From the sequence record MK295204: a DNA stretch of 64,000 nt; one strand, given 5' to 3'. Under the pieces are notes generated by a model that was given only the letters and a program-made list of their open reading frames with translations, had not been told where the DNA came from and searched no databases. The position numbers and the translations under genes were made by a program. Positions 1,363 to 46,383 of the stretch are shown one piece after another; the stretch's first letter is position 1, and each line of letters starts with the position of its first letter. The DNA comes from Shigella phage vB_SdyM_006.

Positions 1363-2613
1363 ATGACCAATAAGATTCAAAAATTATTGCGCGAATCAAG
1401 TACAACAGCCAGTTCATCTAATGGACGTCCTGATCTTGTTGGGTTAACACGCGCAACACATGATTTAATTTTTACAGATTTAATTGCAATACAGAATACA
1501 AATCAGCCAGAAGCGACTCTTTATGGTGTCAAATATTTAAATGACAATAAAGATATGAGTTTTATGACACCAGCTACATATTCTGGTGCTATAAAATCAA
1601 GAGAAAATATCGAAGAACTTGACCCATCTAAATCATATTCTAAAGATGATATGTTTAAATTTGAAGAAGTGGTTTATAAAGTCGTTAAAGATAATCCATT
1701 TACAGATTTGACGTCATTACCAAAAAATGAAGCTTTAGGCCAAGCAATTATAGATGGTTCTATTAGATTTATGTCTGAAGCGGCATTAACTGGGCATTTT
1801 GAAAAGAAAGACGTAGAAATAGCAGAAGCTTCTGTCAGATTAGATCGTTGGAATATTCCTGTAAGAACAAGAAAAATTAAAACAGAGCTCACAGTTGAAT
1901 TTGCTCAAGACTTAAATTCAAACCAGTTTGAAGCAGGTGCCGTAATTGATGACATGTTAGCTACTATTTTAGCTGAAGATGTTAATAAAGACGTTATCCA
2001 AAAAATTATGACTGTTTCTAGTCGATATAAGGTTAAAGGAATTTCTGATAAAGGAATGTTAGATTTAACCAAAACGGATGTTGCTCCTGAACAAGGACGT
2101 ACTTTATATCGTTATATTTGTGAAATGAATGCGTCTATCGAAAGAAATACAACTTATGATGGGACATATGTTTTAGCTAGTTCAAGATGTGCTGCTATTT
2201 TGTCTGCATCAGGTTGGATGGATATTAATCCTGATTATCCTTTAGCCGCTGGCACACTTAAAAATGGCTTACCTGTTTATTCTGACCCTTGGTCTCCTGT
2301 TGACTATGTAGTTGTAGGAACTAAACAAAACCTTGGTGAGCTAGAACATGTAGGTTCTTTATTCTATGCACCTTATATTGATTTTGATGGCGCAGGTGCT
2401 TATAAATTAGTTGTCGATCCAGATAGTTTACAACCTAAACTTGCTTTAATGGTCCGATATGGGTTATCAATTAATCCATATACAGTCATTGAAGTAGACG
2501 AAACACCTCAAAAAGAATCTATGTTAGTTCAAGGTGATGATTGGGACAATTTAGTTGGTAAGTCTAAAATGTCATATATTTTAGGTGTTCAATTACCTAA
2601 ACTTATAGAATAA
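1363..2613 (+). CDS. 24: head vertex protein gp24
   Basis: 416 aa paralog of gp23 directly downstream, as in T4; RBS GAGAG before ATG. Confidence 0.85.
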   Translation: MTNKIQKLLRESSTTASSSNGRPDLVGLTRATHDLIFTDLIAIQNTNQPEATLYGVKYLNDNKDMSFMTPATYSGAIKSRENIEELDPSKSYSKDDMFKFEEVVYKVVKDNPFTDLTSLPKNEALGQAIIDGSIRFMSEAALTGHFEKKDVEIAEASVRLDRWNIPVRTRKIKTELTVEFAQDLNSNQFEAGAVIDDMLATILAEDVNKDVIQKIMTVSSRYKVKGISDKGMLDLTKTDVAPEQGRTLYRYICEMNASIERNTTYDGTYVLASSRCAAILSASGWMDINPDYPLAAGTLKNGLPVYSDPWSPVDYVVVGTKQNLGELEHVGSLFYAPYIDFDGAGAYKLVVDPDSLQPKLALMVRYGLSINPYTVIEVDETPQKESMLVQGDDWDNLVGKSKMSYILGVQLPKLIE

Positions 2614-2641
2614 TTTATTTAATTTCCGGTAATTTATTACC

Positions 2642-2669
2642 TTTTTTGGGAACTTCGGTTCCCTTTTTA
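2642..2669. terminator. bidirectional intrinsic terminator between convergent genes
   Basis: TTTTTT, stem GGGAAC, loop TTCG, stem GTTCCC, TTTTT; between gp24 (+) and 2670..3233 (-). Confidence 0.65.
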
Positions 2670-3233
2670 TTAGAAAAAATCATCTAATGTAAACTCTTTA
2701 TATCCTATCATTTCTTTGAATTCGCACATCACTATTGGGTTATATAAATTATAAGTCTTTATCCCTAAATAACGTGCTAGATAAACAGCTGTTCTTGTCC
2801 CTCCAGAAACATTCCCATATTTATCCTCAGGTGCCCAAAATATAACTGAATCAACAGGATTTTCTAAAGTAGGTGTTAATATTTGCATACAATTTCTACA
2901 TTGAAGATGTTTAACAGTTTTAGAAACACTGTCTAATTTAGGATAAAATCTTCTTATAATATTAGCGGCTTTTTCTTGGATTTCGTCATTAAAGTCTGTA
3001 AATATATGAACACCATTCCCAGAATAGTGATTATTGAACCCCTGGTGAGGAATAATAACACATTTATTTTCAGATGAGTATTTCTTCATAAACAAATAAT
3101 CACTCCCAGGCGCTCCTCCTGATGTTCCTAGCACTCCTAAATTAGAAATATATTCTCCACCACTTATTAAAATATTAGATAAACGACTTGGTATTTTTCT
3201 TGACCCTATTAAAGCTACAGAATTTTTAACCAT
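2670..3233 (-). CDS. DprA/Smf-like SLOG (Rossmann-fold) protein
   Basis: Motifs IGSR, TSGGAPGSD and SGGTRTA resemble DprA/LOG-type nucleotide-binding fold; ATG with GAGGT RBS; a terminator hairpin sits immediately upstream. Confidence 0.5.
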   Translation of the reverse strand: MVKNSVALIGSRKIPSRLSNILISGGEYISNLGVLGTSGGAPGSDYLFMKKYSSENKCVIIPHQGFNNHYSGNGVHIFTDFNDEIQEKAANIIRRFYPKLDSVSKTVKHLQCRNCMQILTPTLENPVDSVIFWAPEDKYGNVSGGTRTAVYLARYLGIKTYNLYNPIVMCEFKEMIGYKEFTLDDFF

Positions 3234-3241
3234 GCTAACCT

Positions 3242-3262
3242 CAAAAAGGACCCGAAGGTCCT
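3242..3262 (-). terminator. intrinsic terminator directly upstream of the SLOG-like gene
   Basis: On minus strand: stem GGACC, loop TTCG, stem GGTCC, then TTTTT, then RBS and ATG at 3233. Confidence 0.55.
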
Positions 3263-3267
3263 TTAAT

Positions 3268-3423
3268 TTATTGTAAAGCTAAAATTAAACCCACAATAAT
3301 AAACCATAACACAAACCCAATCCATAATGGTGATAACACCCATAGCCAAGACCAAGCAATGACACCAACTAGTTTTAAAACAATAAACACAATACCTAGT
3401 ACACCCAAAAATCCAATTTTCAT
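3268..3423 (-). CDS. small hydrophobic membrane protein (51 aa), not in ORF track
   Basis: ATG 1 nt after stop of upstream gene; translation MKIGFLGVLGIVFIVLKLVGVIAWSWLWVLSPLWIGFVLWFIIVGLILALQ is almost entirely hydrophobic (about two TM helices). Confidence 0.35.
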   Translation of the reverse strand: MKIGFLGVLGIVFIVLKLVGVIAWSWLWVLSPLWIGFVLWFIIVGLILALQ

Positions 3424-3424
3424 A

Positions 3425-3670
3425 TTACCAACCTGTTATTTGTATTATATTAGAATCAAATTGGGTTCTTTTAACAGTTAACCCTTCGTTTTGTAATTTT
3501 GTAATAACTTTCTCTTGGACTCGGTATGAGATTTCACCTAGAGTCCAAGTTAAACTATCATACCCATGTTTAGATTTAAGCATTAATCGCTTTGCAATAT
3601 CATTAAACACCTGTTTAGATTCAAGCTCAACTAAGCTATCTTTAGAATCTTTTAATTTATCAATAAACAT
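3425..3670 (-). CDS. hypothetical protein (81 aa)
   Basis: ORF in leftward operon downstream of rnlB. Confidence 0.5.
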   Translation of the reverse strand: MFIDKLKDSKDSLVELESKQVFNDIAKRLMLKSKHGYDSLTWTLGEISYRVQEKVITKLQNEGLTVKRTQFDSNIIQITGW

Positions 3671-3677
3671 AATAAAC

Positions 3678-4682
3678 CTATTTTGTAATTAAATTGACCC
3701 AATCTTTTCGAATGAATTCTTGTATTTCTTTTTGAATAGATTTCTTGATTAATGCTGGGTCATCGTAATCAAGAATATCATGCCCGTCTTTTAACATATC
3801 TTTTAAAACATCCTGCATCATTAGACCTTGAACTTTGCCAAAATCTTTTGAAGATATTTCGCCAACATGGCTAATCACATTAGATAAACGTTGTGCAGTG
3901 ATATATGATGTAGAAAAATTAACCAGTTCTTGGTCGTCATTTGATAATTCTGGTGTAGGTCTAATTGTTTTTACTTTACCAGTTTCTTTGAACTTAGCAT
4001 TTTTACATTTAAAAATTACACGGCTTTTATTATTGAACTGTGTTGGAGTAATAGGTTTAAGAACATAACCTTCTGCAATATTTTCTGAACCTTCTTTTTG
4101 AGGACCAAATACGTGGGCATTTGCAGCCGGAATACCATGTTCTTTTACTATTGCATTAAATTCTGGGATTAAAGAATCAAATGAACGCTCTAAATTACTT
4201 AATTCATCAAAGTCACCAGTTAAAATAACAGGGCAGATTTTAAGATTTGTTTTAGAAGATAACATTCTTAAAAATAAAGCATCTACTAAATCACCATTAA
4301 TTAAAATATCAAATACCCAGAAATCTTTTTCTTCGTAATCTACTTCTCGTTGAATACCAGGGCCTGCATATTCGCCAAAGACTGTTAAAAGTTCTAAGTC
4401 AGGCATTGATTCTTTAACAGTATTAAACATGTCAAGAATGTTTTGTTTATAACGCTTTAAGATTAATTCGTATCCAAAAAATGCTTCAGATTCACCAATA
4501 AGATTAGTTCGTTTTGCACAAACAACATCTACACCATCACAAATAAAACTAAAATTAGTCCCATGTATTTTTTCTTGGGCAATCCAAGGAATACCTGGTG
4601 CTGTTTTTCCTTCAAAAAAGGCCTTTTCTACTAATTTAGTGTTATCAATATTTTCAATAGAATCATATTTAATAAATTGCAT
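3678..4682 (-). CDS. rnlB: RNA ligase 2
   Basis: 334 aa, same length as T4 Rnl2; nucleotidyltransferase motif EKIHGTN and co-linear similarity to T4 Rnl2. Confidence 0.9.
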   Translation of the reverse strand: MQFIKYDSIENIDNTKLVEKAFFEGKTAPGIPWIAQEKIHGTNFSFICDGVDVVCAKRTNLIGESEAFFGYELILKRYKQNILDMFNTVKESMPDLELLTVFGEYAGPGIQREVDYEEKDFWVFDILINGDLVDALFLRMLSSKTNLKICPVILTGDFDELSNLERSFDSLIPEFNAIVKEHGIPAANAHVFGPQKEGSENIAEGYVLKPITPTQFNNKSRVIFKCKNAKFKETGKVKTIRPTPELSNDDQELVNFSTSYITAQRLSNVISHVGEISSKDFGKVQGLMMQDVLKDMLKDGHDILDYDDPALIKKSIQKEIQEFIRKDWVNLITK

Positions 4683-5018
4683 TTATACCTCAAACAATCG
4701 TATTTTAAGACTAGTTGTATATTTGATTTCTAAATTATAAACTTTACCACTATAAACAACAAGAATTTTATTTGGGTTTTCTTCACACCACATTATATTA
4801 TCGTCATTAATAATGTTTAAAAATTCTAGCTCTGAATAACAAGCCCACGAGAATGATTTACTTAAAAACTCTTTTAAATCAAGCCAATCGGTTTCGTCAC
4901 AAATAGCAGGACTCATAACAGCAAGTTTGTGGGTATATGTTTCTTTATCACACCAACGAGTAAAAAACACTTCACGTTTTTCTTCTAAAGGAATAACACC
5001 AGCAGTATACCAAGACAT
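4683..5018 (-). CDS. hypothetical protein (111 aa)
   Basis: ORF; C-terminus resembles that of the next ORF. Confidence 0.5.
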   Translation of the reverse strand: MSWYTAGVIPLEEKREVFFTRWCDKETYTHKLAVMSPAICDETDWLDLKEFLSKSFSWACYSELEFLNIINDDNIMWCEENPNKILVVYSGKVYNLEIKYTTSLKIRLFEV

Positions 5019-5027
5019 AATAATTCC

Positions 5028-5312
5028 TTATTTGATTGGGATGATTCTAAATTTGTATTCACCGCCACGAGTAAATTTAACTTCTAACTGAGTTGATTCA
5101 CCAATGTAAAGAACCAAAATTGAATTTTTATTAGAACGTAACCAGTCTTGATATTCTTCAAAAGACTTGCGTAAAGATGGGATGCTATTTTTATATCGGC
5201 CTAAAATAGTCCATGAGAATTCACCACTGCCCATCCATTTAGTGGAACGGTCATATTTTAAAAGGTTTTCAATATCAATATTTAACCATGTTTTAAAGTT
5301 TTCTTTAATCAT
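5028..5312 (-). CDS. hypothetical protein (94 aa)
   Basis: ORF; C-terminal pattern ILVLYIGE..LEVKF resembles ILVVYSGK..LEIKY of 4683..5018. Confidence 0.5.
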   Translation of the reverse strand: MIKENFKTWLNIDIENLLKYDRSTKWMGSGEFSWTILGRYKNSIPSLRKSFEEYQDWLRSNKNSILVLYIGESTQLEVKFTRGGEYKFRIIPIK

Positions 5313-5500
5313 TTTCTTACCTTCATTCGTTTACGATAAACTACTTTTTCGCGAGTTTTAAATTCCTTCTGTTTTTGTTCAACTTCAATATAAACAGAAG
5401 CCATTTCTTTAGCTGTTCCACCCATTTTTCTGGCTATATCAACAAAGTGCATACCTTGTTGTTTAAGAAAGTGGATTTTTATTTTATCATGATTTGTCAT
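5309..5500 (-). CDS. small basic protein, possible helix-turn-helix
   Basis: Track ORF starts at TTG (5512); first ATG at 5500; Lys/Arg-rich C-terminus. Confidence 0.4.
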   Translation of the reverse strand: MTNHDKIKIHFLKQQGMHFVDIARKMGGTAKEMASVYIEVEQKQKEFKTREKVVYRKRMKVRK

Positions 5501-5660
5501 TATTTTCTTCAAAATCTTTACAGATATCCAAGAGTTTTTTGTTTAAAGCTTCAACAAATTCTGTAGCTGAATCAGGGTATTCGTTAAATAAATAACACAA
5601 ATACTCACTATGTATTTCATGGGCCACTTGAGAAACCATAGTCTTAAGTTCTTTATTCAT
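5487..5660 (-). CDS. hypothetical protein (57 aa from ATG with GAGG RBS)
   Basis: Track ORF extends to 5693 overlapping the macro gene; internal ATG at 5660 has RBS and removes the overlap. Confidence 0.4.
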   Translation of the reverse strand: MNKELKTMVSQVAHEIHSEYLCYLFNEYPDSATEFVEALNKKLLDICKDFEENNDKS

Positions 5661-5664
5661 ATAA

Positions 5665-6099
5665 TCACCTCTCAATAATGTGTATTCTATCATCTAAAAT
5701 ATCATTAAGCATAGGACCAATGACATCCCAATTTAAGCCACCATTAGAACACCCTGGTTTAGGCAGGAGAACTCTTTTAAAATTGTTATTAGATACTATC
5801 TCCATTAATTCTAATGCACTCTTACGTATCAGGTCTTTATCAGACTTGTTATACCAATCATGTTTAGTAGGAAATGATATTAAATTAATGTTATTATATT
5901 TCGTAAGAATTCTGCATACATGGCCGTATTGGATTAAGGATTTAGCCATGATTAAGTCTAAATTAGGAACCTTCAACGAAAAGAGACGGGCAATTCCGGC
6001 TCCCATAACAGCTCTTTTATTTTTCTTGATATTCATGTTTGTTGTAATGCAAATAGCATCACAAGGGATATCAAGAATATTTCCAGATACTATTTTCAT
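5665..6099 (-). CDS. macro-domain protein (ADP-ribose binding/hydrolase fold)
   Basis: 144 aa; N-terminal SGNILDIPCDAICITTN, glycine loop VMGAGIA, C-terminal PKPGCSNGG fit minimal macro domain. Confidence 0.75.
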   Translation of the reverse strand: MKIVSGNILDIPCDAICITTNMNIKKNKRAVMGAGIARLFSLKVPNLDLIMAKSLIQYGHVCRILTKYNNINLISFPTKHDWYNKSDKDLIRKSALELMEIVSNNNFKRVLLPKPGCSNGGLNWDVIGPMLNDILDDRIHIIER

Positions 6100-6518
6100 A
6101 AAGCTTCTTTTAAAACTTCTATAGCATGCTTAATTTCAAAAGGGATACCTTCTGATGGATGCTGGCGAATGTTATCGTCAATATGACTAAAATCCATGCC
6201 AATTACACGGACTTTATATTTTTGCTCACTATCAAATTCTGATATATTAGAACCCCAAGTGTTTGATGATGTAACTTCTTTAGTCTCAAAATAAGTACAT
6301 CCACAATGACAATATTCGTGCCAAAAATCACAGTCTTTATCAAATAAAGGGTGGTCTTCGCGAAGAGTTAAATATACCGCATAACTCCAATCCGGACGAC
6401 CATCATTAAATAAAGCTTTATAACTAGGTGGTAATCCTGTAAACCATGAAGTAACTTCAATAGCTTCGCCTTTCTTTTTATCTGCATGAACAGTGTATAC
6501 ATATTTTTGAATAGACAT
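6096..6518 (-). CDS. Cys/His-rich protein coupled to macro-domain gene
   Basis: Stop overlaps macro start (ATGA); contains CDFWHEYCHCGC cluster; no family recognised. Confidence 0.55.
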   Translation of the reverse strand: MSIQKYVYTVHADKKKGEAIEVTSWFTGLPPSYKALFNDGRPDWSYAVYLTLREDHPLFDKDCDFWHEYCHCGCTYFETKEVTSSNTWGSNISEFDSEQKYKVRVIGMDFSHIDDNIRQHPSEGIPFEIKHAIEVLKEAL

Positions 6519-6716
6519 TTATTTTACCTCAATAATAGTGAGTTCAGTATCTTCTGTCAAATCACAAAAGTCAAAAGCCAATGCAGCAATACCTGGGTAT
6601 TCTGATTCGTCAATAATACATTCAGTATTATTATTTTTGATGTCTAAGGCTAATTGATAATTAGACGTAGTAAATCCAAGTTCAAGTTCTTCGCACCATA
6701 CGGTATACTTTTTCAT
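6519..6716 (-). CDS. small protein, tandem paralog A (65 aa)
   Basis: Begins MKKYTVWCEE, ends TIIEVK; paralog of adjacent gene. Confidence 0.55.
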   Translation of the reverse strand: MKKYTVWCEELELGFTTSNYQLALDIKNNNTECIIDESEYPGIAALAFDFCDLTEDTELTIIEVK

Positions 6717-6911
6717 TTATTTTACCTCAATGAGTTCACAATCGTATAAACAACTACACAGTTCACAAAAAGAATAAGCCGATGCATATGAATCAGTGTC
6801 TATCCAAAACCCAAGATTATCAATAGCACCTTTACGAACTTCATAAGCAAGTTGATAATCAACTGTTTCAAATCCAATTTTCTTTTCTTCGCACCATACT
6901 ATATATTTCAT
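6717..6911 (-). CDS. small protein, tandem paralog B (64 aa)
   Basis: Begins MKYIVWCEE, ends ELIEVK; abuts paralog A. Confidence 0.55.
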   Translation of the reverse strand: MKYIVWCEEKKIGFETVDYQLAYEVRKGAIDNLGFWIDTDSYASAYSFCELCSCLYDCELIEVK

Positions 6912-7756
6912 GAGTATTCCTTGTCATAATAAGAATCTGGAGTAAAAATATTTAACATATTTGTAGAATTATCAATAGTAATAATATTTTCCTGTTCAAC
7001 TTCAGGTGTATAATATTTTAAAAACTCTTCTTTAACGTATTTTACTGGATCACTTTTATAATCGTCAGTAGAAATATCAAATAATTCAATTGTATACGTA
7101 TCAAGCCATTTTTCAGAACATGTTAATCGTCCACATAATAATCCATCATAAACGATAGCATATTCAATATGGCCCCATTTATATGAGCTATCAGCGTCGT
7201 GTCTGATTAGATAAAACTTAATATCAGAATTCTCACAATCATCACTAATATTGTCACGAACATCGTATTCATTGAGCTCGGTCAATTCACTTAAAGCATT
7301 AATAAACAGGTTTTTATATTGAGGGCCAGTTACTAACTTATCTTCTGTTAGTTCTTTCTCAATAAATTCTTTTAAAGTTAAAACTGGCAATTCATACTTA
7401 GGAAATAATGCAGTTTCAGTAATAGTGCCGATATTCAATTCGGCCAATTTCTTAATAACAGAATCTTCAGCTTTATCAGAATCAGTCCAAATATGAAGAA
7501 CTTTAAAATTATGATTATTCCAAATTTTTTGTGGGTCAACATCAATCACATCTTGGGTTTTAGACAAAAACATTAAAAGGTAATCAGAATCATTCCACCC
7601 TACTGGGTTTTCGTATTTTTGAATGACTAGATATTGGAAATCAGTCATTAATGCATTATATCTTTCTTTAGAAGCTAAAGAAGTAGAATCCATAGATGAA
7701 GAAAAAGCTTCAATAACACTAGCTGGGTTTTTAATTAACATTTTGAATAGTCCCAT
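6908..7756 (-). CDS. hypothetical protein (282 aa)
   Basis: ORF with ATG; ATGA overlap with downstream gene. Confidence 0.55.
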   Translation of the reverse strand: MGLFKMLIKNPASVIEAFSSSMDSTSLASKERYNALMTDFQYLVIQKYENPVGWNDSDYLLMFLSKTQDVIDVDPQKIWNNHNFKVLHIWTDSDKAEDSVIKKLAELNIGTITETALFPKYELPVLTLKEFIEKELTEDKLVTGPQYKNLFINALSELTELNEYDVRDNISDDCENSDIKFYLIRHDADSSYKWGHIEYAIVYDGLLCGRLTCSEKWLDTYTIELFDISTDDYKSDPVKYVKEEFLKYYTPEVEQENIITIDNSTNMLNIFTPDSYYDKEYS

Positions 7757-7977
7757 GTGATTTTAACACGATCATGATATATTACTCTATCATGGCTTTT
7801 TGAAACTGTAAATCCTTTTTCTTTAAGAATTTCAATCAACGCATCTTTAATGGCTTCATTTTCTGGAAGCTTTGCGTAATGCTCTGTACTATCATGCAAA
7901 GCCAGTTGGCAAATATCATTTAACACAATAGCTAAATTGTGTTCAACAACAGTATTTTTAAGATCAGATAAATTCAT
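7735..7977 (-). CDS. hypothetical protein (80 aa), first gene of leftward accessory operon
   Basis: ORF with ATG; candidate GTTTAC promoter upstream. Confidence 0.5.
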   Translation of the reverse strand: MNLSDLKNTVVEHNLAIVLNDICQLALHDSTEHYAKLPENEAIKDALIEILKEKGFTVSKSHDRVIYHDRVKITWDYSKC

Positions 7978-8010
7978 ATTATTCTCACAGTTGCGAATTG
8001 ATGATGTGTA

Positions 8011-8039
8011 TACTATATTATAAAATAGTGTTTGTAAAC
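8011..8039 (-). promoter_or_regulatory. candidate early promoter for leftward accessory operon
   Basis: Minus strand GTTTAC, 16 nt spacer, TATAGT. Confidence 0.35.
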
Positions 8040-8062
8040 ATCTAAAATAATTTAAAATAAAT

Positions 8063-8091
8063 GTTTACTTTTGCTGTCATTATGATATTAT
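8063..8091 (+). promoter_or_regulatory. T4-type early promoter, copy 1 of repeated promoter/5'UTR cassette
   Basis: GTTTAC (8063-8068), 17 nt, TATTAT (8086-8091); followed by conserved leader ending GGAGTATATTATG. Confidence 0.6.
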
Positions 8092-8133
8092 ATACATATT
8101 GAAACGAAACATGAAAAACAAATGGAGTATATT

Positions 8134-8478
8134 ATGAATAAGACACAAATCAATGCAGTTTTAAAAACTTTAGGTTATGGTAATTTACGTTATTCTAATG
8201 GTAAAACATACCGCAGAGGAAACTCTATGGTTAAAGGTTTTCATTTAATTTCTACTGGTGCATGTATGGTGACTTCACCAGAAACACAAAAATTTAGTGA
8301 TCTTGTTAATGAGTTAAAACAACATTTTGAATTACAATCATATTATGACAATTGCATGGCAATATTTGTGACAGGAAAATTAAAAATTGTTGTTTGTTTA
8401 ACAAATTTTAATACATACGGTGGCTTAAACCCAGATTATAAAACATGGTTTGCATCTGTTAATATTGAAAAGTTATAA
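8134..8478 (+). CDS. hypothetical protein (114 aa), rightward moron-like gene
   Basis: ATG at 8134 preceded by GGAG; opposite orientation to neighbours; own promoter and terminator. Confidence 0.55.
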   Translation: MNKTQINAVLKTLGYGNLRYSNGKTYRRGNSMVKGFHLISTGACMVTSPETQKFSDLVNELKQHFELQSYYDNCMAIFVTGKLKIVVCLTNFNTYGGLNPDYKTWFASVNIEKL

Positions 8479-8481
8479 AAC

Positions 8482-8509
8482 AAAAATGGGACCGTAAGGT
8501 CCCATTTTC
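8482..8509. terminator. bidirectional intrinsic terminator
   Basis: AAAAA, stem ATGGGACC, loop GTAA, stem GGTCCCAT, TTTT; between 8134..8478 (+) and gp54 (-). Confidence 0.6.
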
Positions 8510-26200: not shown

Positions 26201-26521
26201 TTAGGACCTTATTTTTAAGATTGTTTTCATTGCAGCAACTAATGGTTTTTTATCCTCAACCCAGTCATCACAACATAAATTTTCATTATCGAAATTATTG
26301 TATCTAGAACCTAGACAATGTAAACCGATAAATGTATCATTTGATGTTTTTGTTACACTGATATCATGGTCTAACATTAAGACCCAAGCTTGATTAATAT
26401 TATTACATGGATCAAATTTTAAGCCATTAATATAAACAAATAACTTAAACCCTTGGTTTTCTACTGTGTATTCATACCCAAGACTTTTAGCTAGTTCAAT
26501 ATTAATATCAAGTTCAGTCAT
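26201..26521 (-). CDS. hypothetical protein (106 aa)
   Basis: ORF. Confidence 0.5.
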   Translation of the reverse strand: MTELDINIELAKSLGYEYTVENQGFKLFVYINGLKFDPCNNINQAWVLMLDHDISVTKTSNDTFIGLHCLGSRYNNFDNENLCCDDWVEDKKPLVAAMKTILKIRS

Positions 26522-26955
26522 AACCGTCTCCTTAAAGATGTCAATATACCACAGAATTCTTGGTTTGTTAATATAGTTTCGAACTTATTTTCGCATCCTA
26601 TAGTATGAACTAATGTTTTATCGCCTGTTGCTCTCAGAGCATCTCTGAATGATTTATTCTGATTAAACATATGAATATATGCTCTGACTAGTAAACGTTT
26701 GTAGGCTTCACTGTGACGATTAATAGGGCATCCATTATACCACATAGTGTCATTTTTCATTTTAGGACCAGCTAATTTGGCCTTTAATCCATGCAGTTTA
26801 AACACTTCAGATTGTTCTTTAGGGTCTTTAATTTTTAATCCTTGTAAAAATCCTTCTATACTGCCAAAGAGCTGATTGTCCATTTTAAAAGGATGCTCAG
26901 CAAAATTACTTAAAGCACATGAAGGCCAAGGGCCTCTAGAATGAATATCAATCAT
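26518..26955 (-). CDS. NADAR (YbiA-like) domain protein
   Basis: LSNF..PF, S.E.F.Q..K and MFNQN..FRDALRATGDKTLVH align with E. coli YbiA motifs FSNF..P, TSEHYFQAQKF and KFEQH..LRALLLATAPAKLVEH. Confidence 0.7.
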   Translation of the reverse strand: MIDIHSRGPWPSCALSNFAEHPFKMDNQLFGSIEGFLQGLKIKDPKEQSEVFKLHGLKAKLAGPKMKNDTMWYNGCPINRHSEAYKRLLVRAYIHMFNQNKSFRDALRATGDKTLVHTIGCENKFETILTNQEFCGILTSLRRRL

Positions 26956-40203: not shown

Positions 40204-40488
40204 TCACAAATATATTTTATCATTAAACAGTTTATTAACAACTTCGGCTATTATATCACCATGGCATGGCTTAGGATAACATGTGCAACCAAGTCTAGAG
40301 CCTCTTAAAACTTCAAGATGATGTTTATTTATTTCGCCAGTTTTTATTTTATTAAGAAAATATGGGATAAACCTTTTGATGTTTTCTTCTCTAGTTCCAT
40401 CTTTAAAAGGATTACCCCACATTGTCCCTCTTTGAATATTAATATCAAAGTCAGAGTTATATTTATTAACGACTCTACAATGTTTCAT
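40204..40488 (-). CDS. DUF4326-like small protein
   Basis: WGNPF near N-terminus and LGCTCYPKPCHGDI near C-terminus fit the DUF4326 pattern as recalled. Confidence 0.5.
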   Translation of the reverse strand: MKHCRVVNKYNSDFDINIQRGTMWGNPFKDGTREENIKRFIPYFLNKIKTGEINKHHLEVLRGSRLGCTCYPKPCHGDIIAEVVNKLFNDKIYL

Positions 40489-46113: not shown

Positions 46114-46383
46114 TTAAAATAAGAAATCTAATGTATTCATTGTAAAAGATTTACGAACAGATGGACGAAGCTCGTTGTTTTCTAAAGCTTCTTTAGTAAT
46201 TTTATCAACTATAGCACCTGGTAAATACTTATTACATAAATTGTATGGAATAGAATTTTCTTCTAACCAATTTGTAGAAGCTTCTAAATAAGAAGCTCCT
46301 TCTTTAACTTTTTGTTCAATTAAAGCTCCAACTAATGTTGGGTCTTCTATATCAATATTATTGGTTTGGGAACAAAGAGTCAT
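46114..46383 (-). CDS. 33: late transcription co-activator gp33-like
   Basis: 89 aa between 59 and dsbA; synteny only. Confidence 0.5.
   Translation of the reverse strand: MTLCSQTNNIDIEDPTLVGALIEQKVKEGASYLEASTNWLEENSIPYNLCNKYLPGAIVDKITKEALENNELRPSVRKSFTMNTLDFLF

Follow-up and report, generated by a model that had tools for sequence, protein, structure and literature searches.

DprA/Smf proteins, which act in bacteria as mediators of transformation and recombination, bind single-stranded DNA (ssDNA), and a DprA-like relative, ShosA (PsyrA), is the antitoxin of the ShosTA defence system and binds both ssDNA and RecA (PMC12961424). In the same study, R52, R143 and R170 of Helicobacter pylori DprA (HpDprA) were matched to R139, R234 and R261 of ShosA, and the double mutants R139E/R261E and R139E/R234E lost ssDNA binding. 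For phages, Iyer et al. 2021 (PMC7824862) suggested that DprA/Smf serves as an extra ssDNA-binding protein, and Iyer et al. 2022 (PMC9503650) predicted that viral SLOG proteins process or sense soluble signals derived from ADP-ribose (ADPr); no experimental work on either prediction was found in the literature. Here, we analyzed a DprA-like gene in a stretch of 64,000 nucleotides (nt) from Shigella phage vB_SdyM_006 (sequence record MK295204), and the whole of this stretch is called the window. The gene and the segment that bears most on its function are as follows.

2670..3233, minus strand: DprA-like SLOG-fold protein, 187 aa (the same as phiP4-3 gp100)
2673..2690, minus strand: tail TLDDFF (residues 182-187) of this protein, a putative binding epitope for the gp45 sliding clamp, matching the tails of T4 gp43, gp55 and gp33

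The protein belongs to a very common family (1,397 records from phages of many families, ~2,000 cluster representatives) whose members are routinely labelled 'DprA-like recombination mediator' by homology. Family membership and annotation are already known, and the same is true of the two functional ideas of the original prediction, made by a model from the sequence alone, namely a recombination mediator and a sponge for nucleotide immune signals. Both are in print as predictions, and the evidence below leans toward the first, nucleic-acid reading and away from the second. What appear to be new are the clamp tail on the T4-like members, the consistent linkage with the RNA ligase gene rnlB, and the interpretation of the domain fusions of the family in terms of DNA ADP-ribosylation. 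We tentatively propose that the protein may be a clamp-tethered, ssDNA-binding accessory factor of T4-like phages.

Relationship to DprA

The open reading frame (ORF), as read from the sequence, runs on the minus strand from the ATG at 3233-3231 to the TAA at 2672-2670. Its product shows 100% identity to gp100 of Proteus phage phiP4-3 (Straboviridae, Bragavirus); the window and this phage are 97.9% identical over the first 8 kb, and positions 2670-3290 are identical. In RefSeq, gp100 is named "DprA-like DNA recombination-mediator protein", and in GenBank it is hypothetical. The hidden Markov model (HMM) of PHROG 768 matched residues 3-179 on profile positions 3-182 of 191 (E = 9.1e-57, 192.7 bits), and the profile of the family matched the H. 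pylori DprA structures over its N-terminal 55 positions (E = 1.4e-5). Profile searches thus placed the protein with DprA-like families and not with an unrelated one. Pfam DprA was matched at E < 0.01 by 66 of the 110 family members in our alignment, the best value being 1.5e-8. An exhaustive HMMER search returned 2,078 cluster representatives at E <= 1e-3, mostly standalone proteins of ~180 aa.

The original prediction of a 187-aa protein carrying the motifs IGSR, SGGAPGSD and SGGTRTA was correct, and these motifs (residues 9-12, 38-45 and 143-149) fall on invariant or near-invariant columns of the 110-sequence alignment, which are G10, S11 and R12; S38, G39, A41, G43 and D45; and G144, G145, T146 and A149. 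The glycine-rich loops by which SLOG membership was judged, G10-S11-R12, S38-G39-G40-A41-x-G43-x-D45 and G144-G145-T146, consist of residues that are invariant or conserved in over 90% of the sequences. The consensus of the family reads GIGSRxTP...SGGAxGAD...LPWxGFN...HPxW...KLHxRNxxQVLG...GGTxTA, with G10, G39, D45, R113, G144 and T146 invariant, and every invariant of the family lies inside a motif common to DprA. The motifs of Escherichia coli Smf (GSR / SGLARGID / FPRRNRIISGL / RSGSLVTA) are collinear with them over the whole domain. R12, conserved in 99% of the sequences, aligns with the GTRR of HpDprA and the GSR of E. coli Smf, and thus with the arginine of the G-S/T/A-R motif, by which DprA binds ssDNA.

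AlphaFold2 (AF2), run on the same alignment, gave a confident model, with a mean predicted local distance difference test score (pLDDT) of 96.1 and a predicted template modelling score of 0.91. The model is a three-layer alpha/beta fold similar to that of known SLOG members. In a fold search of BFVD it fell into a tight cluster of ~20 phage structures at template modelling scores (TM) of 0.7-0.84, while the viral SLOGs of the YspA/YAcAr type scored 0.4-0.5. By sequence and by structure, the closest relatives are DprA proteins rather than ThsA, YpsA or LOG. The profile searches, the structure prediction, the fold search and the RefSeq annotation therefore agree with the SLOG/DprA-LOG Rossmann fold that had been predicted. 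They strongly support, on sequence and model grounds, a SLOG-superfamily protein of the DprA-like clade that represents a diverged, minimal and phage-specific family, not an orthologous DprA.

Narrower assignments were also considered. A LOG-type enzyme was rejected, because the catalytic glutamate is missing (the sequence there is VSGGTRTAVYLA) and D45 is the only acidic position conserved in at least 60% of the sequences. An ortholog of ShosA was rejected as well, given a PADLOC match of E = 0.054 and no phosphoribosyltransferase (PRTase) among the neighbours, which are rnlB and small ORFs.

The C-terminal tail

The protein ends in ...KEFTLDDFF, and the putative clamp-tail peptide is IGYKEFTLDDFF. 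In the AF2 monomer the core has pLDDT of 94-98 and the value falls from 94 to ~71 at the tail, which is consistent with a flexible tail. The tails with which T4 proteins bind gp45 are similar, namely ...KASLDFLFG in gp43, ...SPSLDFLYEAND (SLDFLYEAND) in gp55 and ...NTLDFLL in gp33. Such tails are interchangeable clamp epitopes carried on unstructured linkers, and they compete for gp45 (Geiduschek & Kassavetis 2010, PMC2988020). In the same phage, the tails are NTLDFLF in gp33 and SLADLFDF in gp43 (L005:22623-25334), the former serving as the reference within the window.

46114..46383, minus strand: gp33 late-transcription co-activator (PHROG 254, E = 3e-23), tail NTLDFLF

When the last nine residues of 637 ORFs of this phage were searched with the strict motif [ST]L[DE]x[LF][FYLW], only two matched, gp33 and the DprA-like protein, against ~0.14 expected by chance. 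Close relatives of the DprA-like protein carry SLDWLF, SLDDLF, SLDSFF, SLDFLF, TLDFLYD, TLDFLW, SLEDLFG or LDWLL at the corresponding position. In addition, the tail appears to change together with the other clamp-binding tails of its own phage. In RB49, gp43 ends in ...LFDI, gp33 in ...NTLDI and the DprA-like protein in ...SWLDI, and a metagenomic relative ends in ...PNTLDI; in KEN39, gp33 ends in ...SLDFLL and the DprA-like protein in ...FDIFSL. Across the three lineages compared, the last residue therefore follows the tails of the same phage, being F/F/F in phiP4-3, I/I/I in RB49 and L/L in KEN39. Members without such a tail include those of PAK_P3 and of DP45, a T4-like phage of Acinetobacter, as well as most distant representatives.

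Binding was also modelled with an AF2 chimera, in which gp45 was joined through a (G4S)6 linker to the 14-mer tail and pLDDT was the only read-out. The linker had pLDDT of ~40, whereas the last ten residues reached 80 and formed a one-turn helix at LDDF; this result is compatible with docking on gp45 and lends it weak support. From the motif and its variation among lineages, we consider it probable that the tail of the DprA-like protein binds gp45.

Two further sequences were noted in the course of this comparison. The late sigma factor gp55 of phiP4-3 (L005:15335-15883) ends in ...LDAFYELSEEDTQSFSFD; its LDxFY element lies 13 residues short of the C-terminus and a second acidic-aromatic stretch comes after it, an arrangement that differs from gp55 of T4. 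The annotated N-terminus of the RB49 protein (MFDQLQDLFG...) was considered as a clamp motif and set aside, since the annotated start is probably over-extended.

Gene neighbourhood, expression and fusion partners

The DprA-like ORF is flanked by the convergent gene 24 (1363..2613, plus strand) and by rnlB (3678..4682, minus strand), as had been predicted, and two small ORFs (3268..3423 and 3425..3670) intervene on the rnlB side. It is the last of ~16 co-oriented leftward ORFs, a cluster that starts near 7977.

1363..2613, plus strand: gp24 capsid vertex protein, convergent neighbour
2628..2668, plus strand: tandem pair of intrinsic terminators for the late unit gp23/gp24 (GGTAATTTATTACC-T6 and GGGAACTTCGGTTCCC-T5), conserved in PM2 and MP1
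3239..3242, minus strand: Shine-Dalgarno sequence GAGG, 5 nt before the AUG (sequence read)
3245..3264, minus strand: UUCG-tetraloop hairpin (core GGACC-UUCG-GGUCC) with a U-run, abutting the ribosome-binding site; terminator-like or RNA-stabilising (folding energy -15.9 kcal/mol, z = -2.7)
3268..3423, minus strand: 51-aa hydrophobic small ORF (phrog_1374) between rnlB and the DprA-like gene
3425..3670, minus strand: 81-aa ORF (phrog_8208), a paralog of 7735..7977
3678..4682, minus strand: rnlB, RNA ligase of the T4 Rnl2 type (Pfam RNA_ligase and T4_Rnl2_C; synteny), conserved upstream neighbour
5665..6099, minus strand: macro-domain-like 'phosphatase' ORF of 144 aa in the same leftward cluster (PHROG 335, E = 1.6e-25; Pfam Macro, 21.5 bits vs the cut-off of 22)
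26518..26955, minus strand: NADAR of the AdfN/gp30.3 type (DNA ADP-ribosyl-glycohydrolase family), standalone here (Pfam Phage_30_3, 145 bits)
40204..40488, minus strand: DUF4326 protein, standalone here (Pfam DUF4326, 74.5 bits)

The leftward cluster also contains three pairs of small paralogous ORFs without an assigned function, all on the minus strand: 3425..3670 and 7735..7977, both matching phrog_8208; 4683..5018 and 5028..5312, whose matches to phrog_18468 and phrog_19888 cross over; and the tandem ~65-aa ORFs 6519..6716 and 6717..6911, each of which starts with MK(K)Y(T/I)VWCEE. The macro-domain-like ORF is intact in phiP4-3 too, yet RefSeq annotates only a 46-aa piece of it there; in PM2 it is labelled 'phosphatase'.

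The phage records detected by tblastn come from phages of Klebsiella, Pseudomonas, Escherichia, Vibrio, Aeromonas, Acinetobacter and other hosts, and 27 plasmids were found in addition. The gene is convergent with gene 24 in Bragavirus, Gualtarvirus, Krischvirus (RB49) and Jiaodavirus; one small ORF lies between the two in Ceceduovirus, and three genes in Roskildevirus. A gene for an Rnl2-type ligase is located directly or closely upstream in Bragavirus (the window and PM2), Gualtarvirus, Jiaodavirus, Slopekvirus, Roskildevirus, Ceceduovirus and two metagenomic contigs, so that all of the T4-like lineages sampled showed the linkage apart from RB49 and Acinetobacter DP45, where no RNA ligase is annotated nearby. 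In T4 itself, rnlB lies directly against gene 24 and the slot is empty of the DprA-like gene. Beyond the T4-like phages, the gene adjoins that of the single-stranded DNA-binding protein (SSB) in the Chaseviridae phage 'flopper', is near the SSB gene in Schitoviridae C121, and in PAK_P3 has genes for DNA ligase and helicase as neighbours. In Klebsiella phage Toast (Slopekvirus), the block of RNA ligase, HNH and DprA-like genes is away from gene 24, and a gene for nicotinamide phosphoribosyltransferase lies 1.3 kb downstream of it (L010:5886-7319). The homolog of Morganella phage MP1 (L016:5625-6200) is annotated as 136 aa, and its frame extends upstream through the GSR and SGGAPGSD motifs to ~185 aa; the annotation is therefore truncated, and the start is probably non-ATG.

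Inspection of the gap on the 5′ side of the ORF gave the sense-strand sequence AAAGGACC-UUCG-GGUCCUUU-UU-GAGG-uuagc-AUG, with 34 nt to the upstream stop codon. The predicted hairpin and U-run upstream of the ribosome-binding site were found at 3264..3245, although the distance is ~5 nt and not the ~10 nt first given; the U-run is only 5 U long, followed by GAGG, and the terminator scan places this hairpin on the plus strand. The gap leaves no room for a promoter, as the original prediction had stated. Over 2300-8500, the T4-type late promoter TATAAATA had zero matches. The 42 sigma70-like sites of the promoter scan were not above the shuffled expectation of 36.7, and none of them is claimed as a promoter. 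A MotA-box-like TAATGCTTAA followed after 13 nt by TATGAT (~3582..3550, minus strand, inside the ORF 3425..3670 and ~340 nt upstream of the DprA-like start) might represent a middle promoter of the T4 type, but it is a single match and is likewise not claimed. Candidate early promoters are located at ~8046-8010, in the divergent intergenic region beside the start of the leftward cluster.

The terminator downstream of the gene had been described as bidirectional; what is there is a pair of tandem hairpins (2628-2641 and 2648-2663) with T-runs on the plus strand exclusively, the minus strand having A6 and GGAAAUU after them and no U-run. Because the U-runs are on the plus strand only, these hairpins would terminate the gp23/gp24 transcripts. 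The hairpin upstream of the DprA-like gene is variable among relatives. PM2, of the same genus (Bragavirus), retains its sequence with a degenerate tail (UUUAGGG), and it is missing in MP1, where the upstream gene abuts the DprA-like ORF, and in the Klebsiella Jiaodavirus KEN39. In KEN39 (L008:11799) the start codon of the DprA-like gene overlaps the rnlB stop by 1 nt (TAATG), and a 4-nt overlap with the rnlB end is seen in one metagenomic contig (L023:375-378); these arrangements suggest translational coupling. The KEN39 overlap without a hairpin and the degenerate U-run of PM2 indicate that, as a general rule, the gene is transcribed together with rnlB as the last part of a long leftward early/middle unit. 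In this light, the original prediction of expression solely by terminator read-through is over-stated. The UUCG hairpin of Bragavirus resembles either a leaky terminator or an element that stabilises the RNA. Hairpins of this kind are reportedly common in the intercistronic regions of T4. The mRNA of the DprA-like gene would then come from far-upstream promoters (candidates near 8040) and read past the leaky hairpin, and the gene would be of the delayed-early or middle class.

Domain fusions were surveyed in the 150 best representatives of the family. NADAR was fused to the domain in four proteins (P0034, P0153, P0031 and P0060), and three of these NADAR regions also match the gp30.3 profile; P0031 and P0060, which are ~1,480 aa long, additionally carry YAcAr and LDcluster4 SLOG domains. 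DUF4326 was fused in two proteins (P0041 and P0077), and macro in one plasmid-encoded SLOG+macro protein. Fusions of this kind had been noted by Iyer et al. 2022 (PMC9503650). NADARs strip ADP-ribose from guanine in DNA, and gp30.3 (AdfN) of T4 defeats DarTG1, whose toxin modifies ssDNA (PMC11543638; PMC11825919). The substrate of NADAR/AdfN and of the DarG macro enzymes is ADP-ribosylated ssDNA (PMC11825919). Since these partners act on ADP-ribosylated ssDNA, the fusions fit an ssDNA-binding module as well as they fit a binder of small molecules. The phage of the window has each of the three partner types (AdfN-type NADAR, DUF4326 and macro-like) as a gene of its own. A further metagenomic protein of 299 aa (P0093) reads as Rnl2 plus a DprA-like domain, and may be a real fusion or an artefact of assembly or a frameshift; it was not relied on, because both halves are truncated and the domain lacks its N-terminal 63 residues.

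Proposed function and comparison with known systems

The DprA-type invariants, the missing LOG glutamate, the clamp tail and the adjacency to SSB genes in other lineages make us lean to a role on nucleic acids, and our tentative proposal is a DprA-like, clamp-tethered, ssDNA-binding accessory factor. The pocket would bind ssDNA, or the phosphate backbone or an end of a nucleic acid, as DprA does, and the tail would tether the protein to gp45 sliding clamps on phage DNA. A clamp tether would place its action on the single-stranded parts of replication, recombination or repair intermediates. There, the protein may work in the manner of a mediator, handing ssDNA to UvsX/RecA in competition with gp32/SSB; another possibility is that it partners enzymes that clear ADP-ribose adducts from ssDNA (AdfN-type NADAR, macro and DUF4326) and targets them to this DNA. 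An elaboration of the latter, to which we give only a small chance, would add a new client to the T4-type clamp: the protein would be a replisome-tethered DprA-like reader of damaged or ADP-ribosylated (DarT-type) ssDNA at forks, working with AdfN-type NADAR, macro and DUF4326 proteins and possibly Rnl2 to remove the damage, as a repair counter-defence against DarTG.

Several points weigh against a clamp-tethered DprA-like factor. Free nucleotides are further ligands of SLOG pockets, with LOG and ThsA as examples. UvsY already serves T4-like phages as a recombination mediator, and no experimentally characterised phage SLOG or DprA-like protein was found in the literature. The match to Pfam DprA (PF02481) covers residues 4-80 only, at 17.2 bits vs the gathering threshold of 29.6, and that to the TIGR00732 equivalog reached 11.7 bits vs the cut-off of 191.15. 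The statistically supported alignment with DprA/Smf is limited to the N-terminal ~60-65 residues, and the RN helix is therefore equated with the RNR motif of DprA through collinearity. The protein is a single Rossmannoid domain with a tail of 6-7 residues and has neither a SAM domain nor the C-terminal winged-helix (DML1), and the isoelectric point of the family is mildly basic (median 8.6, below 6 in 13% of members). As to the tail, the pLDDT of 80 in the chimera is only modestly above the 71 of the monomer.

Among the other explanations, the sponge of the original prediction is one that we regard as unlikely: in it, the protein is an anti-defence sponge or enzyme that binds, sequesters or degrades a soluble nucleotide derived from nicotinamide adenine dinucleotide (NAD) or ADPr, such as a cyclic ADP-ribose isomer or a TIR/Thoeris-type signal. 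It can draw on the prediction for viral SLOGs cited above (PMC9503650), on the fusions of the domain to NADAR, macro and DUF4326 and its presence in giant proteins with multiple SLOG domains and NADAR, on the nicotinamide phosphoribosyltransferase gene 1.3 kb downstream in a Slopekvirus, and on the macro-like, NADAR, DUF4326 and nudix genes of the window phage. However, the NADAR and macro partners act on ADP-ribosylated ssDNA, so that the fusions are not specific for a small-molecule ligand, and the nearest relatives are DprA rather than ThsA, YpsA or LOG, the BFVD cluster being separate from the YspA/YAcAr SLOGs. Further, the glutamate of the LOG motif PGGxGTxxE is missing and D45 is the sole conserved acidic residue, a sponge of soluble ligands would have no evident need of a clamp-binding tail, and other lineages keep the gene in SSB neighbourhoods. 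The linkage with rnlB raises another explanation, in which the protein is an accessory of an RNA-repair or nick-sealing module that hands RNA or RNA-DNA ends to Rnl2, possibly with the macro-like 'phosphatase'. The ligase gene is upstream in six T4-like genera and two metagenomic contigs, with the stop/start overlap of 1 nt in Jiaodavirus; in Slopekvirus the pair has been relocated together from gene 24, and P0093 reads as the two domains joined. Nevertheless, this explanation is quite unlikely, because the interval gp24-rnlB-hoc is a plastic insertion slot in which T4 has rnlB without the DprA-like gene, and because in RB49, where the gene lies at gp24, the ~5 kb upstream of it contain no annotated RNA ligase. 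Moreover, members of the family are common in phages whose sampled gene neighbourhood carries no annotated RNA ligase (PAK_P3, N4-like phages and Chaseviridae), and P0093, in which 63 N-terminal residues of the domain and a portion of Rnl2 are missing, may be an artefact of assembly or gene calling.

The tail itself may be read differently, with the early protein occupying gp45 as a competitor or regulator that modulates the switch from replication to late transcription and with the SLOG domain serving as a sensor or scaffold. In its favour, the tail belongs to the type found on gp33, gp55 and gp43, whose tails are mutually exchangeable and compete for the clamp (PMC2988020), and the gene lies in an early/middle-type cluster that has no late promoter; but the residues of the DprA-like pocket are strictly conserved across ~2,000 cluster representatives, most of them tail-less. 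The core function thus predates the tail and is independent of it, and we consider regulation of the clamp highly unlikely as the main role. Least probable of all is mimicry of the ShosA antitoxin, by which the protein would neutralise ShosT in infection. ShosA is indeed a DprA-like protein that binds ssDNA and RecA, and a weak PADLOC match to PsyrA was obtained; that match, at 10.6 bits over residues 3-59 only, is not significant, the SAM domain and the extra C-terminal helix of ShosA are absent, and the phage protein is more closely related to DprA proper than to ShosA. ShosA does not bind ShosT directly (PMC12961424), and simple mimicry is therefore not an obvious mechanism.

For a clamp-tethered ssDNA-binding factor, the clamp tail, the rnlB linkage and the fusions turn a vague label into specific and cheap experiments. 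If the tether is real, the short list of T4 clamp clients grows, and it would point to a replication-coupled process on ssDNA, possibly the handling of ADP-ribosylated DNA, that is missing at the corresponding locus of T4.

Compared with DprA/Smf, the phage protein has the same order of motifs (G-S-R, SGxAxGxD and, as judged by collinearity, the R-N helix and (S)GG/S-T-x-x-A), with the arginine of G-S/T/A-R conserved at 99%. It differs in scoring below both curated cut-offs, in consisting of the ~165-residue core only, without SAM or winged-helix domains, and in having a family-specific middle segment (LPWxGFN ... HPxW), to which the T4-like members add the putative clamp tail. Within PHROG 768, whose name is an annotation by homology and which includes RB49 ORF164, PAK_P3 gp149 and phiP4-3 gp100, it is a full member of the same size and with the same motifs, and nothing sets it apart. 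The viral SLOGs of the NAD+/ADPr network (YspA/YAcAr; Iyer et al. 2022) belong to the same superfamily and have the same kinds of fusion partner, whereas they form a separate BFVD cluster and the phage family is nearer to DprA than to YpsA or ThsA. With LOG and the SLOG sensor of ThsA there is no match at the sequence level, and the phage protein has neither the glutamate of PGGxGTxxE nor a fused effector (SIR2 or transmembrane). ShosA (PsyrA) shares the DprA-like fold, and its ssDNA binding is lost in double mutants of the arginines equivalent to those of DprA; the phage protein, encoded by a lytic phage, gives no significant HMM match to it and has no SAM domain or PRTase partner. Finally, the epitopes of T4 gp43, gp55 and gp33 are borne by known components of the replisome or the transcription machinery, whereas here the sequence is on a SLOG-fold protein for which gp45 binding is predicted. 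In common with those epitopes, it is a hydrophobic-acidic [ST]LD(F/D)(L/F)(F/Y/L) that forms the very end of the protein, preceded by a linker of low model confidence, and its changes from lineage to lineage parallel those of the gp33 and gp43 tails of the same phage.

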